Part shown: in pieces, positions 36,001 to 48,000 of the stretch
How the letters are laid out: each line of letters opens with the position of its first letter
Position numbering within the stretch: position 1 is the first letter of the stretch
Source: an uncultured Methanosarcinales archaeon
GTDB taxonomy: Archaea > Nanobdellota > Nanobdellia > Woesearchaeales > GW2011-AR9
Assembly (NCBI GenBank): GCA_964362365.1
Contig: CAYIEF010000002.1
Location: 908-64,907, forward strand
Direction: 5' to 3'
Length of the DNA: 64,000 nucleotides
Program-made: the position numbers

Positions 36001-39000
36001 TCACATTTACTCGTCTGAAAATATAGAAAACCTTAAATAATACTTCCGCAACCTCACAAATATGAAAACCAGCGATTTAGTCCAAAAATTAGAAGGAATT
36101 TATACTTTAGAGTCAATCATGGCAGCTCTTAAGGTAGATCGCAGTACGGCGATGAATTATATCTCTAAGCTTCGAAAACAAGGCTATGTTAAAACAAAAC
36201 GAACCAGCAGTGGTAAAAGAATCTACAACATTTCCAGGCTGAATAAAATAGGTGGTAAGAGTTATTATGAAGTCTTAAATCAAGTTTCTCCCATAAGACT
36301 TTCAGAAGCTGAAACGTATAAAGTGTATGGAAGAGACATAAGCTATGAAGAGACGCTTGTGTATGCGCTTAAAACAGGAAAGCTACGGGTTGTTCTTTCC
36401 TCGTTGGCTCTGTTCAAACATATCAATAACTGGACACAATTATCAGAGCTTGCTCGTAAGAATTCTGTGCAACGGCAGGTCTGCGCCTTGTATGAGTTAG
36501 CACGTTCTATCATAAAAGTTAGAAAGGTACGTAAGCAATTTTTGAAAACGTGTCTTCCAAAAACAGACGATACATATCTTTATATAATCCCAAACTTGAA
36601 ATCGAAGGATTTTATTGAAATTCAGCAGAAATGGAAAGTATATTTGCCATTTAATAAAGGAGACCTCCAGGAGTACCTTCAAAAATGATAAACGTCACTG
36701 GTCAGCAGAACTTATTGTTGAATATAGCTCGAAAGCTGCCGAAGAAAATAACAGTGTATGCTGTTGGTGGCACTGCGATGATGTTTCACGGTTTTAAAGA
36801 TGTCACACTCGATATAGACTTAGTTTTTACGTCTGAAGAAGATAGGAATGCGTTCAAATCAATAGCTGAGGAATTGGAATATAAACGATATGATCATAAA
36901 TTGGTGTACGGAACAAAATCAAATCCTCCTCTCATGCTGCGTCGTGGAAAAGGTGAAGAAGAAGAAAGATTTGACCTTTTTACAATAGATGTTATTGATT
37001 TTGTCTTCTCTGAAGAGATGATGAAGCGAGCAAAAGATACATACGAATTTGATCATAAGCTGATATTAAAAATTGCTGATCCACATGATATTATACTTAT
37101 GAAATGTGCGACGGAAAGAGTGAAGGATAAGGATGATGCTCGGCAGATTATGAATAATTCTAAACTCAATTGGCAGATTATTATTGATGAAGCACTCAAT
37201 CAAATAAAATTAGGAAGAACTAAAGCGATATGGTATTTGACTGGTTTTGTTACCGATGTCAAAAAGATTGGGGGGAATATTCCTTCTGACGTGCTCCCAA
37301 AGCTCTACAAATTGTTAGAAAAACAAGGTGATACCAAAAGTTAGGTGTTACTTTTTTGTAACGCCTCAGTTTGCTAATGAAGAGTTAGTATATGTTTAGA
37401 TTCAGTGACGGCCAGATACTCTCATTCCTAATGTCTACGATCCCCAATCATTAAATCGGTATATGTTTGAGAGGGGGAATCCGTATGAGAATGTGGATAA
37501 GAAGAGTATTATTTAGAAATGGTTCTGGGTCTTCTTCATATGCCCAACATATCCAGCATAACTCATCACCGGCATGTTGTTTTCTTTTGCAAAGGAGAGA
37601 AACGTCTTGACGATAGAAGCTTCATAGTCCTGACTATTATCGCTATACATAAACGGATGTAAGTTTGGAGCGTACATCATGCCTTTACCATGCGCTTTTA
37701 CTAATTCTTCTCGGTAGTATGCGCATGCTTCTGTAACGTCCTTATATGGTGAAATGTTCTTCAATAATATGTGAGTATCATGCCAGCCATGGGTAGGGAC
37801 TTCGATAAGCCCGTTTTCATGTACGTAACTTTCTCGTATTTTTCCTTCTTCTTCTAGGAGCGCGGGCGGATGGTCGCCTTTCCCCACTAAGTCTGAAGAG
37901 ACAAAGCGGATTCCGTTTTTTTTAAGAATATCCAGAACTGCCGGCTCTCCTTGAAGTCCTTTATAAAATCCAATAGGAGTTTTGAGTCCAAATACTTTAA
38001 CTCCTAATTTACGTTCTATGATCTGGTTTGCTTTCTTGATTTCAGTGTCTATTTCAGAAAGAGAAATTGGTTTTCTATTTTTTTCACGCATGTATCTTTC
38101 ATTCGTTTTTATGAGGGGATGAGAATAAGTGTGTTGTTGAATATCAGCTAAATCACCCGCTAAAGCGAGTTCTTTTTTTAATTCCGCAACGTAATCATCA
38201 TACTCCAACAGTTTTCCCAGTATGAAAAAAGTGAAGGGGGCATTATAAGCTCGATGGAGAGCGATGATCTTTTTTACTCCCTGCAAGGAGGCCATCCTAT
38301 CTTCCGGAGACATGTATCTTTCCACATCGTAGCCCATAACCAGGATAGGATTATTCATGGCCTGGTAAGCAGTATCCTCATTTATAAAATTTTCTTTGGC
38401 AGAAGCCCTGTAGAAAGTCTAGAAAAAGTCGCCTTGGCCGTTCATTCGGTTGGCTTCACGTTGGTATCATTATACGTAATTCACTCTTTTTTTGTTAGAA
38501 GCCAAACAATAATCTGGTCTTGAAACATGTTCCTCACTCACCTCTTGGCCTAGGCGGCGACTTTTTTTACAGAGCCTTTGGCAGAAGGTTAGCTTGTATA
38601 TCATAATCTTTAAAAACGAGCTTTCTCGTAGCTGTTTTATGAGGAATGTGCGGATCATACCTAGGTTAGATGTGAAAGGCCCTAATGTTGTGAAAGGGAT
38701 TAGACTGGAAGGATTGCGGGTTTTAGGAAAACCAGCTGAGTTAGCAAAACAATATTACGAACAAGGCGCAGATGAAATTTTGTATATCGACATCGTGGCC
38801 AGCTTATATGAACGAAATAACTTATCACAGGTCGTAAAAGAAGCAATTTCGTTAGGCGTGTATGTGCCCATGGCAGTGGGTGGAGGCATACGGACATTAG
38901 AAGATATCCAAGAATTGCTGTATGCAGGTGCAGATAAAGTGGCTATCAATACTGCAGCAACTCGTAATCCTCGATTAATCACTGATGCCGCGAGAAGGTT

Positions 39001-45000: not shown

Positions 45001-48000
45001 GATAAGAATTTATCAGGACCTGATCACAAGGCATCTTTACTGCCAGAGGAGTTTACTGCTTTAGTACGCGCGGTTCGGAATATTGAGCAGGCATTAGGAG
45101 ATGGAGTGAAGCGGCGAACTGCACGTGAAGAAGAAGTGGCGAAAACTGCTAGACGTAGTGTGGTGGCGCATGTTGGTATTTCTGCCGGCACTGAGCTTAC
45201 GGAAGAAATGTTACGTATGAAAAAACCAGAAACCGGCATTAAGCCGAAATATTATTGGGATTTACTTGGAAAGAGAGTGACTAAAGATATTGAAGCAGAT
45301 CGAGCTTTACAGTGGGCTGATATTGAGGGTGGAGAAGAATGCATAAACGGAAAATTGCAGTAGTTACGGTAAGCAGGGCGGAATATGGAATTCTTAAGAA
45401 TCTACTCCGCAAAATACATAATAGTTCAGAGTTAGAATTGCAGTTGCTGGTGACTGGTTCGCATCTGATGGAAGGGATGGGGAATACAATTGAAGATATT
45501 ATCGATGATGGGTTTCCCATTGCCGCAAAAATAGACATGGAATTGGCTTCTGATGCTCCGCATGACATCGCTGGAGCGATGGGAACTATTGTTCAAAAGA
45601 TGAGTAAAGCTTTCACGGAATTACAGCCAGATCTACTCGTTTTAATTTCTGATCGATTTGAAACCTTGGCGGCAGCAGTAGCAGCTAGTCCTTTTACTAT
45701 TCCTATCGTACATATCGCCGGAGGCGTGGTCACTGAGGGAGCGATAGATGATAAAATGCGGCATGCGGTTACCAAGTTAAGCCATTTACATTTCCCAGTG
45801 GATGAGGCTGGCGCTGCCAATTTGCGAGCCATGGGCGAAGAAGAGTGGAGAATTACCGTAAGCGGTTCTATGGCTATGGATTTACTTAAATCTGAAGCTA
45901 CTTACTCTCAAGAAGATTTAGGAAGACTGCTAGGGATTGATTTTTCAAAAGGAGTGATCTTGTTTGTGTATCATCCTGTAACTTTAGAGTATCAGGATAC
46001 GGCGCGGCAGATTGCCAATGCGTTGGAAGCGGTGCTTTCTTTTAATATGCAAGTAGTTGCTTTGTATCCTAATCAAGATACTTCTCGCATGGTAATTGCC
46101 GAAGCATTGGAAAAAGCAGCTGCGGAAGATAGTTATCTTAAGCTGATAGATCATCTAAAACGAGGAGTGTATGCCAGTTTGCTTAAACATTGCAAGGTGA
46201 TGGCAGGTAATTCCAGCAGCGGGTTGCTGGAAGCTCCCACTTTTCAAACTCCCGTAGTTAATATCGGAAACAGGCAGAAAGGAAGAGGAAGAACGAGTAA
46301 TGTCATTAGCTGCGGTTATGAGATTGAGGAGATAAAAAAGGCAATGGAAAAAGCATTATATGATCAGGACTTTGCACTGCAATTAACTACGGTGAAAAAT
46401 CCTTTTGGAAATGGTGCGGCGGCAGATGCGATTTACAATACTATTCTTAAGTTAGATTACAATAACAAACAATTGCTGGGAAAAAGTTTAGGTAAGAGAG
46501 CATGAATATTTTATTATTAAGCGCGGGAAGAAGAAATTTACTGGTGCGCTATTTTAAGGAAAGTCTTTCGAAATCCGGAGGAAAAATCTTTGCTGCCGAT
46601 TGCAGTCCGACGGCGCCGGCTTTATATGACGCAGATGGGAGTTTTATGGTGCCTCCTTTTAGTCATCAGGATTATATCGATACGATCATCCGTCTTTGTA
46701 CAGAGAATGGGATAAATACTATTCTTTCTGTAATTGATTCAGAATTATCTATACTTGCTGAGAATTATGATAGGTTGAAAGCAGCAGGTATTTTTCCTCT
46801 TGTTTCTGGAAAAGAGGCAGTAGAGATTTGCTTTGATAAGTATTTATTGCACACTTTTTTACTGGAGCATGGTTTTAGGAGCATCCCTAGTTTTATTTCG
46901 TTGGAAGAAGTGGAGGAGAAGTTACGTTTGGGAGCATTGTGTTTTCCTTTGTTCTTAAAACCGCGCAAGGGAAGCGCCAGCATCGGTTTGGCAAAAGTTG
47001 ACACCCTTGAACAGTTGCGCATGGCTTTTTCTAAAGAGCCGGGGATGATGATCCAACCTTTTATTACTGCCCAAGAATGGGGAGTTGATGTGTATGCAGA
47101 TTTTCAGAGCAGGGAAGTGATCCAGGTTTTTCCGAAGAAGAAAATACTTATGAGGTCAGGGGAAACGGACAAGGCTATAGGGGTTAAGAATAAGGAACTG
47201 ATGGAGTTATGTAAGGAGGTTGTTTCTAAACTAGGATTGGTAGGGCCGATAGATCTAGATTGTTTTGAGACTGAGCATGGTTTTGTGGTGTCGGAGATAA
47301 ATCCTCGTTTTGGCGGCGGATATCCTTTAGCGTATAACAGCGGAGCTAATTTTATGGATTTGATTCTGCATAATCTTGAGGGGAGGGCTAATGTGCCTAA
47401 AGTGGGAGAGTTTAGGGAAGGAGTACAGATGTTTAAGTTTGTGGATGCGAAGTTTGTGGATGGTGAGCTAAGAGATTGATTTTTTTGAACTTCATTCCCA
47501 AAACCTTTTAAACAAACCACTAAATACACCAGCATGGCAGTCATATCATTCTTACTCTCATTGCCGGGATGGCTAAAGGTATTACTAATTTTAACTTTAG
47601 TAACTTTCTTCGCCGGTATCCGTATCGTAAGACCTACAGAAAGAGCAGTCATTGAACGCTTAGGGAAGTACAGAAAATTCTGTAAACCAGGATTCCAATG
47701 GGTTATCCCAGTTATCGATAGAATGTTTAAGGTAAATGTTACGGAACAGATGGTGGATGCGGAACCGCAGGAAATAATTACCAATGATAATCTTAATGCC
47801 AGAGTGGATGCTCAAGTCTATTTTAGAGTAAAGCCAGATGAAACTAATGTTGCGGCGGCTTTGTATAATGTTCATGAATTTGAAACTCAAATCGTGAATC
47901 TTGCTAGAACCACGCTTAGGAACATTATCGGGACTTTAACCCTTAAATCAGCCAATAGCGAGAGAGATAAAATCAATGGCGAATTGATGCAGACACTGAA

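Follow-up and report, generated by a model that had tools for sequence, protein, structure and literature searches.

The archaeal contig CAYIEF010000002.1 (GenBank assembly GCA_964362365.1) supplied a stretch of 64,000 nucleotides, hereafter the window, whose positions are counted from its first nucleotide. At 38639 to 47479 it carries a seven-gene operon through which this DPANN ("Nanoarchaeota") archaeon would make a CMP-activated nonulosonic acid (NulO) bearing an acetamidino group, a reading to which we assign a probability of about 0.7. Two of the genes are fusions: one joins a HisF-like barrel to a HisH glutaminase, and the other joins a CMP-nonulosonate synthetase (NeuA) to a nonulosonate synthase (NeuB) with a SAF domain. 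The original prediction, made from the sequence alone, had proposed a module of this kind at 38594 to 46505. Its core genes hold up, and both fusions are single open reading frames (ORFs) with complete domains in Pfam and NCBIfam searches. Its limits need correction, since an ATP-grasp ligase gene (46502 to 47479) lies beyond the proposed end and the likely start is 38639. It also passed over that ligase and the aminotransferase and dehydrogenase genes that stand between the amidotransferase gene and the NeuA-NeuB gene.

The ORFs of the window were listed, and their translations were then searched with Pfam and NCBIfam profiles. The seven ORFs of the operon are all on the plus strand and uninterrupted (38594 to 40081, 40091 to 41332, 41352 to 42530, 42531 to 43487, 43549 to 45363, 45339 to 46505, and 46502 to 47479), and from 5′ to 3′ the first four intergenic gaps measure 9, 19, 0, and 61 nt, whereas the last two junctions overlap by 25 and 4 nt. 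In order, they are predicted to encode a fusion of a HisF-like (WbuZ/AglZ-type) barrel with a HisH glutaminase (38639 to 40081, within the mechanical ORF from 38594); an N-acetyl sugar amidotransferase (NASAT) of the WbuX/WbpG/PtmG/PseA family, a PP-loop ATP pyrophosphatase with a Zn tetracysteine motif; a class I/II pyridoxal phosphate (PLP) aminotransferase of the Asp/aromatic type, subgroup Ib-like; a D-isomer-specific 2-hydroxyacid dehydrogenase resembling PGDH and glyoxylate/hydroxypyruvate reductases; a fusion of a NeuA/LegF-like synthetase, a NeuB/LegI-like synthase, and a SAF domain; a hydrolyzing UDP-HexNAc 2-epimerase of the NeuC/LegG type; and, as the last gene, an ATP-grasp ligase with a PylC-like N-terminal domain, assigned to the PRK12767-5 family by its family matches. 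A run of seven T residues (47480 to 47486) lies directly 3′ of the ATP-grasp stop codon. At the other end, the ORF finder began the first gene at TTG 38594 (495 aa), and an alternative start at ATG 38639 gives 480 aa. Because a TATA-like element read from the sequence, TTTAAAAA (38609 to 38616, plus strand), lies ~27 nt upstream of that ATG, and because the domain matches of the 495-aa ORF begin only at residues 16 to 20, the true start is likely ATG 38639, not TTG 38594. We infer that TTTAAAAA is an archaeal promoter and that the mRNA is leaderless.

Within the first ORF, Pfam places His_biosynth at aa 20 to 250 and GATase at aa 288 to 484 (495-aa numbering), so that the HisF-like part spans ~38651 to 39343, the linker ~39390 to 39450, and HisH ~39455 to 40045. 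This order is the reverse of that in the eukaryotic HIS7 protein, as had been predicted. The C-terminal half passes the HisH model TIGR01855 (196 bits; cutoff, 105) and contains the HisH motifs GICLG and FHPEKS, and the Cys-His-Glu triad (C348, H462, and E464), invariant across 50 fused homologs, is retained in the window protein. The HisF-like half has HisF-LUCA as its best PDB match and scores below the hisF equivalog cutoff of NCBIfam (275.5 versus 294.55 bits). When it is aligned to HisF-LUCA and Pyrobaculum aerophilum HisF, D11 is retained and D130 is replaced by Glu. In 81 NulO-linked HisF homologs the D130 position is Glu in 70, Gln in 9, and Asp in none, a count made against a Thermotoga maritima HisF reference, with D130 confirmed independently through the HisF-LUCA/P. 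aerophilum alignment. R5, E46, K99, and E167, the ammonia gate of HisF, are present in the window domain and in at least 79 of the 81 homologs. The HisF-like domain resembles the WbuZ/AglZ family and, with scores below both equivalog cutoffs, belongs to a separate subclade.

An AlphaFold2 (AF2) model of the fusion, computed with 50 fused homologs as input, had a pLDDT of 91.7 and a pTM of 0.92. Since low confidence was confined to the ~20-residue linker, the model predicts a defined packing of the HisF-like domain against HisH. The pTM is the sole indicator of that packing. The Foldseek search gave none, its alignment covering only the HisF half (TMt of 0.93 to HisF structures) owing to a domain order permuted with respect to HIS7.

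The NASAT gene (40091 to 41332), 9 nt downstream of the HisF-HisH gene, had been recognized in the original prediction by its PP-loop, and the assignment is borne out by a match of 363.4 bits to TIGR03573 (WbuX; cutoff, 203.2) over aa 25 to 387 of 413. Its PP-loop (SGSGGKDS) and tetracysteine motif (CTKC...GVCAAC) are invariant across the homolog alignment; the corresponding family motifs, SGGxDS and CxxC...[GN]xCxxC, have been defined previously (PMC10607449). The predicted reaction is an ATP- and ammonia-dependent amidination in which the N-acetyl group of a sugar becomes acetimidoyl. The Legionella pneumophila NASAT (PDB 8WEX) is 57% identical to it over 373 aligned residues (E value, 4e-148). 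Legionaminic acid is a component of the L. pneumophila O-antigen, and non-serogroup-1 strains are reported to have a homopolymer of a 5-acetamidino-7-acetamido nonulosonic acid.

Genomic context ties this branch of the family to NulOs. One genome per species was scanned with the NASAT alignment, the best 80 loci were kept (53 to 63% identity, from many phyla), and homologs within 10 kb were counted for the 52 of them that are at least 20 kb long. NeuB was found in 49 of the 52, NeuC in 51, NeuA in 50, and all three together in 48, and HisF plus HisH accompanied NASAT in 50 of these loci and in 75 of all 80. Because the close NASAT homologs nearly always adjoin NeuA, NeuB, and NeuC as well as HisF and HisH, it is well supported that the clade holding the window enzyme is, in practice, a NulO-cluster enzyme. 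Among the clustered flanking ORFs of all sampled loci were LegB-like short-chain dehydrogenases/reductases (SDRs; 45), DegT aminotransferases (43), and PtmE-type CBS-nucleotidyltransferases (37), together with PglD-like acetyltransferases, a recurrent set that matches the Campylobacter-type legionaminic acid pathway. A Promethearchaeota locus (L005) has a second, divergent NASAT (8716 to 9852; 378 aa), 32% identical to that of the window, beside a fused HisF-HisH gene, and two amidinations may occur in that locus.

The second fusion is a 604-aa ORF (43549 to 45363) in which Pfam finds CTP_transf_3 at aa 9 to 190, NeuB at aa 280 to 521, and SAF at aa 535 to 593, corresponding to a NeuA part at ~43570 to 44232 and a NeuB part, SAF included, at ~44326 to 45306. 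The NeuB part passes TIGR03569 (NeuB_NnaB; 406.1 versus 399.65 bits), with 302 bits to Pfam NeuB and 43 bits to SAF. The NeuA part scores 94.6 bits against CTP_transf_3 (cutoff, 22.6) and matches solved CMP-Neu5Ac synthetases (PDB 6IFD, 107 bits; 1QWJ, 85 bits). The fusion gene is followed, as predicted, by the NeuC-type gene (45339 to 46505), which reaches 419.3 bits against TIGR03568 (cutoff, 235.9) and overlaps the 3′ end of the NeuA-NeuB gene by 25 nt (45339 to 45363) in a different frame. A hydrolyzing epimerase of the NeuC type argues against the pseudaminic route. With such an enzyme in the operon, and with the NeuB part falling short of the PseI model (TIGR03586; 286.5 versus 340.25 bits), we rejected pseudaminic acid. 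Of the earlier proposal that the enzyme trio amidinates legionaminic or pseudaminic acid, the link to NulOs thus stands, on the NASAT context and the similarity to 8WEX, and the pseudaminic option becomes unlikely.

The three genes missing from the earlier list appear to handle organic acids. The aminotransferase (41352 to 42530) matches Aminotran_1_2 with 208 bits and aspartate aminotransferases in the PDB with 197 to 245 bits. Because its PLP lysine (SFSKSF) and carboxylate-binding Arg (HIRISLG) align with those of the aspartate aminotransferases, its substrates would be amino and 2-oxo acids, not sugars. The dehydrogenase (42531 to 43487) has 136 bits to 2-Hacid_dh_C and PDB matches to PGDH, glyoxylate/hydroxypyruvate reductases, and D-LDH. 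For the ATP-grasp protein, the best solved relative is 2PN1 (271 bits), an unannotated structural-genomics entry. Its homologs of 44 to 48% identity occur in many Firmicutes, and the two such loci that were checked are polysaccharide clusters with DegT and amino-acid-handling enzymes (the Tissierella one also with a PglF-like dehydratase); no PglD-type acetyltransferase stood beside DegT in either cluster. Among the 89 loci sampled, only the window, the nearly identical contigs L001/L002, and L003 combine the aminotransferase, dehydrogenase, and ATP-grasp genes, and L001/L002 and L003 keep the entire seven-gene block at 43 to 87% protein identity. The sampled stretches of these same loci contained no PglD/LegH-like acetyltransferase, and scans of the window found no dedicated N-acetyltransferase for a legionaminic precursor.

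By analogy with VanH/VanA, the ATP-grasp ligase, fed by the aminotransferase and dehydrogenase, may replace the acetyl-CoA-dependent N-acetyltransferase of legionaminic acid synthesis. The product would then be a CMP-activated sugar of the legionaminic type, acetamidino-modified at position 5 and bearing on N7 a hydroxyacyl or aminoacyl substituent such as glyceroyl, lactyl, or malyl. We offer this idea tentatively, with the odds somewhat against it; the acid-ligation step is the least secure part of our reading and, if true, the most interesting. A second set in the window, located at 32769 to 35519 and kept in L001/L002, comprises a HAD phosphatase, a PGDH-like 2-hydroxyacid dehydrogenase, and an ATP-grasp ligase that shares 33% identity with the operon enzyme; a third 2-hydroxyacid dehydrogenase lies at 50989 to 51987.

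For the second amino group of a legionaminic-type sugar, the candidate 4-aminotransferase is a DegT-family sugar aminotransferase at 62737 to 63900 (plus strand), 15 kb downstream of the operon. It reaches 289 bits against PseC and 223 bits against LegC, both below cutoff, and it is 49% identical to the DegT protein of the legionaminic-like locus L005. On contigs with the identical DegT protein (Hainich groundwater assemblies), the next gene (L089, 4282 to 5661), which would lie just beyond the end of the window, encodes a 459-aa SDR with Polysacc_synt_2/Epimerase matches. In the sister locus L003, a LegB-like SDR lies upstream of the seven-gene block, and a LegC-like DegT gene (288 bits to the LegC model) directly follows the ATP-grasp gene.

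Taken together, the enzymes suggest the following pathway. A 4-amino precursor would come from the DegT aminotransferase at 62737 and the SDR encoded after it. The Asp-type aminotransferase and the D-2-hydroxyacid dehydrogenase could yield a 2-hydroxy (D-) or amino acid, which the ATP-grasp ligase could join in amide linkage to the free amine at position 4, which becomes N7 of the NulO, in place of an acetyl-CoA acetyltransferase. The subsequent steps draw on homology and on conserved gene neighborhoods. The NeuC-type enzyme would hydrolyze and 2-epimerize a UDP-HexNAc, the NeuB domain would condense the NeuC product with phosphoenolpyruvate (PEP), and the fused NeuA domain would activate the sugar with CTP. 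For the amidination, the HisH domain would hydrolyze glutamine, and the ammonia would travel through the fused HisF-like barrel, in which the four gate residues are kept and the cyclase residue D130 is lost, to the adjoining PP-loop NASAT, which would use ATP to make acetimidoyl from N-acetyl. Each fusion would unite cooperating proteins, as a 1:1 pair of glutaminase and channel in one case and as two consecutive steps in the other.

Several results weigh against this reading. No LegB, LegC, LegH, or PtmE homolog was found in the operon or in the 10 kb on either side of it, and the 459-aa SDR after the DegT gene has no clear dehydratase assignment; it carries an N-terminal extension of ~125 aa with a weak CBS match. 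The HisF-like domain stays below the cutoffs of WbuZ (TIGR03572; 269.2 versus 299.7) and of NF038364, which names the AglZ/HisF2 family (194.5 versus 310), and the NeuA part does not reach the PseF equivalog (134.8 versus 205.7). The acid-ligation role of the three additional genes draws on context in three lineages only. A further such point is that a probable 3-acetamido-sugar branch at 1738 to 5350 could supply the NASAT with a different substrate. Finally, the neighbor-joining (NJ) tree of 69 NeuB homologs and only three solved references, which bears on the choice of sugar, is midpoint rooted and carries no support values; in it, the window, L001, L003, and L005 share a clade with Bacillus subtilis SpsE, PseI, and loci holding the full LegB/LegC/PglD/PtmE set, and Neisseria meningitidis NeuB lies elsewhere.

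That placement bears most directly on whether the backbone might simply be Neu5Ac, made from UDP-GlcNAc by NeuC, NeuB, and NeuA alone as its CMP form and then converted by the NASAT to Neu5Am, with no diamino precursor. The operon has no dehydratase, DegT, or acetyltransferase gene, so that its content of NeuC, NeuB, and NeuA resembles the Neu5Ac route; the TIGR03569 model that the NeuB part passes is named N-acetylneuraminate synthase; and LegB- and LegC-like genes are missing within 10 kb in 13 of the 56 NASAT loci that are 20 kb or longer. Against these points stand the clustering of the NeuB domain with the synthases of full legionaminic loci, apart from the N. meningitidis enzyme, and its scores against solved structures, where SpsE, which belongs to a legionaminic acid pathway, is the best match (213 to 226 bits) and outscores N. 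meningitidis NeuB (178 to 183 bits). The DegT and SDR pair 15 kb downstream and the LegC-like DegT of the L003 block also speak for a diamino precursor, and Neu5Ac would offer the ATP-grasp ligase no free amine to acylate. Peaks consistent with CMP-Neu5Am have been reported in Campylobacter jejuni (2026 preprint), which lends the Neu5Am route some plausibility. On the rough NeuB tree, the SpsE match, the LegB- and LegC-like genes of L003, and the distal DegT and SDR genes, a legionaminic-type 5,7-diamino sugar is nevertheless favored over Neu5Ac or Neu5Am with reasonable confidence, and we consider the Neu5Am route unlikely.

The trio might also act on some other N-acetyl sugar of the glycan, for instance FucNAc or a 2,3-diacetamido (uronic) sugar, with NeuA, NeuB, and NeuC colocated simply because they belong to the same glycan island. 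There are precedents in the Methanococcus maripaludis AglXYZ and Pseudomonas aeruginosa WbpG systems, for 2,3-diacetamido sugars, and in Escherichia coli O145 WbuXYZ, for FucNAc. The whole 64 kb is indeed a glycan island. Hexose derivatives are known substrates of the NASAT family (WbpG and WbuX; PMC10607449). The branch at 1738 to 5350, however, lies 34 kb away, whereas the trio shares a tightly spaced operon with NeuA, NeuB, and NeuC; moreover, the NASAT clade at 53 to 63% identity is almost always found beside those genes, the L. pneumophila enzyme is 57% identical, and the divergent paralog in L005 is just 32% identical to the window enzyme. These observations make a different sugar substrate quite improbable. 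Least credible of all is that HisF-HisH is a genuine imidazole glycerol phosphate synthase located here by chance. Its homologs are annotated as HisF or HisH, the TIGR01855 model is passed, the hisF score comes to 275 bits, and HisF-LUCA is the best structural match, but that hisF score is below the cutoff, the position of D130 holds Glu and is never Asp in the 81 homologs, the NASAT gene begins 9 nt downstream, and the same HisF/HisH pair recurs in 75 of the 80 NASAT loci. Neither Pfam nor NCBIfam detected a further his gene among the ~52 window ORFs scanned. On the residue, the score, and the adjoining NASAT, and given the domain order reversed relative to HIS7, we rejected this identity; the HisF-like half is, by its sequence, a paralog and not a histidine enzyme. 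Amidination of a NulO, most plausibly of the legionaminic type, thus remains our preferred reading of the operon.

Assembly error or a hidden stop codon was looked for as an explanation of both fusions and rejected, because the ORFs are continuous and fused homologs of each recur on many independent ENA, JGI, NCBI, and Logan contigs. For HisF-HisH, at least 120 clusters of fused proteins (432 to 545 aa) were found in ENA, JGI, NCBI, and Logan assemblies, with query coverage of 89 to 100% (at least 99% in all but three) and 48 to 97% identity. Those with a name come from Promethearchaeota, Woesearchaeota, Nanoarchaeota, and Omnitrophota, and their source annotation is plain HisF or HisH. In the NCBI metagenome-assembled genome (MAG) contig L001, the annotated gene at 5006 to 5924 covers only the HisH half (211 aa), and the nearly identical Logan contig L002 has the complete 484-aa HisF-HisH protein; an ORF scan of L001 also gives one ORF, and the HisH-only gene is probably a gene-calling difference.

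In unfused loci of the NASAT set, the order HisF then HisH is nearly universal, and in an NJ tree of sampled HisF domains from 89 loci, 10 of 10 fused domains fall in one clade that has no unfused member. Because the fused domains are monophyletic and the unfused genes already have the same order, the HisF-HisH fusion would appear to have arisen once, through loss of the stop codon between genes adjoining in that order. It would then have spread among Archaea (DPANN, Methanosarcinales, and Asgard) and into Omnitrophota and Planctomycetota. Because members of this one fused clade occur in several phyla of Archaea and in a small number of bacteria, the module seems to have been transferred horizontally.

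The NeuA-NeuB fusion has a different distribution. Close relatives are 80 to 85% identical, and MAGs of Woesearchaeota, Patescibacteria, and Planctomycetota supply dozens more at 35 to 55% identity. Since the fused members lie in different parts of the NeuB tree (the window clade, L032, and L038), this fusion probably has more than one origin. The closest clusters include P0122 (L001, 10001 to 12949) and P0124, both of which are NeuA-NeuB-NeuC triple fusions of 980 to 982 aa. Comparison of the window with the L001 triple fusion shows that a 4-nt indel at the NeuB/NeuC junction separates the frames, and the split and merged states each occur on several independent contigs. A Woesearchaeota protein of 899 aa (P0145) adds a PIG-L-type de-N-acetylase domain (PF02585) to NeuA-NeuB, which hints at de-N-acetylation within DPANN NulO tailoring. 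Both fusions are common in metagenomic data and are therefore lineage markers, not rarities. The suggestion that they could mark related loci is accordingly best kept in the first sense, the fused HisF-HisH gene identifying a single clade; with at least 120 HisF-HisH clusters and dozens of NeuA-NeuB proteins, they are not rare.

In the literature searched, we found no account of a HisF-HisH fusion in this order, of a NeuA-NeuB fusion, or of NulOs in DPANN archaea. Fused glutaminase/cyclase proteins are described there only in the HisH-HisF order (HIS7, a few delta-proteobacteria, and two Archaeoglobales), and the NulO gene fusions described are other ones, such as a Leptospira NeuB-phosphatase. 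HIS7 and the HisHF proteins of delta-proteobacteria and Archaeoglobales resemble the window fusion in placing a glutaminase and a (beta/alpha)8 barrel on one chain, in a 1:1 ratio and with ammonia tunneling. They differ in that HisH precedes HisF, D130 is kept, and the product serves histidine synthesis, whereas the window protein has HisF before HisH, Glu at D130, and a link to NASAT.

Most likely, the system is of the acetamidino-NulO kind known from Legionella and Campylobacter, with an architecture that differs in its two fusions, its putative acid-ligation trio, and its displaced precursor genes. Like the window, the lipopolysaccharide locus of L. pneumophila, which makes poly-legionaminic acid (Leg5Am7Ac), contains a NASAT, HisF-like and HisH-like proteins, and NeuC/NeuB/NeuA, and the PP-loop and Zn tetracysteine motif are common to both NASATs. 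There NeuC, NeuB, and NeuA use a diamino precursor. Unlike the window organism, Legionella is a bacterium in which all of these proteins are separate, and the locus lacks the class I aminotransferase, 2-hydroxyacid dehydrogenase, and ATP-grasp genes; unlike Legionella, the window has no precursor genes in the operon.

The Campylobacter flagellin locus likewise uses a NASAT homolog to amidinate a NulO, PtmG for Leg5Am7Ac and PseA for Pse5Ac7Am. PtmG is Cj1324, PseA is Cj1316c, and the HisH- and HisF-like neighbors are Cj1315c and Cj1314c. Of the comparators originally suggested (ptmG, ptmH, and pseA), PtmG and PseA with these neighbors are apt, and PtmH, a methyltransferase, lies outside the trio. 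The neighbors typical of the window NASAT clade (LegB, LegC, PglD-like, and PtmE-like) correspond to the GDP-linked legionaminic pathway of Campylobacter. The Campylobacter genes are unfused, and the window operon lacks PtmE, LegB, and LegH and has the extra acid-handling genes. The acetimidoyl group in Campylobacter is apparently added at the CMP-sugar stage.

Among Archaea, the M. maripaludis AglX/AglY/AglZ proteins, which provide the acetamidino group of ManNAc3NAmA in an N-glycan, offer the same combination as the window of an archaeal NASAT with HisH-like and HisF-like proteins for glycan amidination. Unlike in the window, their substrate is a 2,3-diacetamido uronic acid and not a NulO, and the proteins are separate. 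In Tannerella forsythia, Pse5Am7Gra combines an acetimidoyl group and a glyceroyl amide on one NulO, and the genes for both have been reported as unknown or elusive there; unlike the window system, this one has a Pse backbone and no NASAT homolog. An archaeal legionaminic acid N-glycan pathway with LegI, LegG, and LegF homologs has been described in Halorubrum sp. PV6 (PMC6137143), and a term search of that paper turned up neither an acetamidino group nor fused genes for the biosynthesis.

The remainder of the window is a single large glycan island. Convergent with the operon, the 518-aa product of 48537 to 50093 (minus strand) has partial, subthreshold matches to a BFO_1060-family glycosyltransferase (71.5 bits), to TIGR04396 (57 bits), and to Glyphos_transf. 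Its L003 homolog (39% identity) has Epimerase_2 and weak A-2_8-polyST matches, and an L004 protein of 24% identity to the window protein matches A-2_8-polyST, Epimerase_2, and, weakly, LIC12162. The window protein is thus a fair NulO transferase candidate. Divergent from the operon, a polysaccharide deacetylase-family protein (37513 to 38358, minus strand; Pfam Polysacc_deac_1) occupies the same position in L001/L002, and its membership in the module is uncertain. A carbamoyltransferase and a GDSL-like protein occur in the window (15934 to 19860) and again, close to the HisF-HisH/NASAT block, in the distant relatives L003 (3877 to 6925) and L004 (1 to 5025), and this pair may be a conserved accessory for O-carbamoylation or acylation.

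Farther out, a third fusion (2681 to 4342) joins a hexapeptide acetyltransferase (aa ~10 to 170) to a DegT aminotransferase (aa 191 to 538), for which QdtB, DesV, and WbpE are the best matches among solved structures. On one side of the fusion lies a GFO/IDH/MocA dehydrogenase gene (1738 to 2703), whose product resembles UDP-GlcNAc 3-dehydrogenase with a subthreshold score of 185 bits, and on the other lies an SDR gene (4355 to 5350); together these genes probably form the 3-acetamido-sugar branch considered above. They were rejected as LegB/LegC/LegH equivalents, given that the DegT part is nearest to those C3-aminotransferases and that identity to the legionaminic-like genes of related loci is 26 to 37%. 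At 54715 to 56424 lies a pyruvate kinase with an N-terminal winged helix (HTH_24/MarR-like; aa ~16 to 60), an unusual architecture in a PEP-consuming glycan island. An ATP sulfurylase followed by an APS kinase (56424 to 58108) is predicted to supply 3′-phosphoadenosine 5′-phosphosulfate (PAPS), which suggests that the glycan is sulfated. In L001, a cytidylyltransferase-PEP mutase fusion (19761 to 21065), indicative of phosphonate biosynthesis, lies between a methyltransferase and a CDP-alcohol phosphatidyltransferase; the window counterparts of these two neighbors (51994 to 52695 and 52757 to 53461) directly adjoin without the fusion and are followed by an inositol-monophosphatase-like gene (53488 to 54339).

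Acetamidino nonulosonic acids alter surface charge and, in pathogens, influence the assembly of flagella, the formation of biofilms, and colonization of the host. To our knowledge, the amidination step has never been reconstituted, and a single-chain glutaminase-channel protein encoded beside its NASAT would lend itself well to biochemical study of this reaction. The aminotransferase, 2-hydroxyacid dehydrogenase, and ATP-grasp ligase are candidate enzymes for unusual N-acyl groups on NulOs; if the proposed acid ligation is true, they would be the missing enzymes for hydroxy-acid amides on nonulosonic acids, as in the Pse5Am7Gra of Tannerella. More broadly, the operon adds to the evidence that DPANN archaea, for all the small size of their genomes, may invest in complex, sialic acid-like surface sugars.

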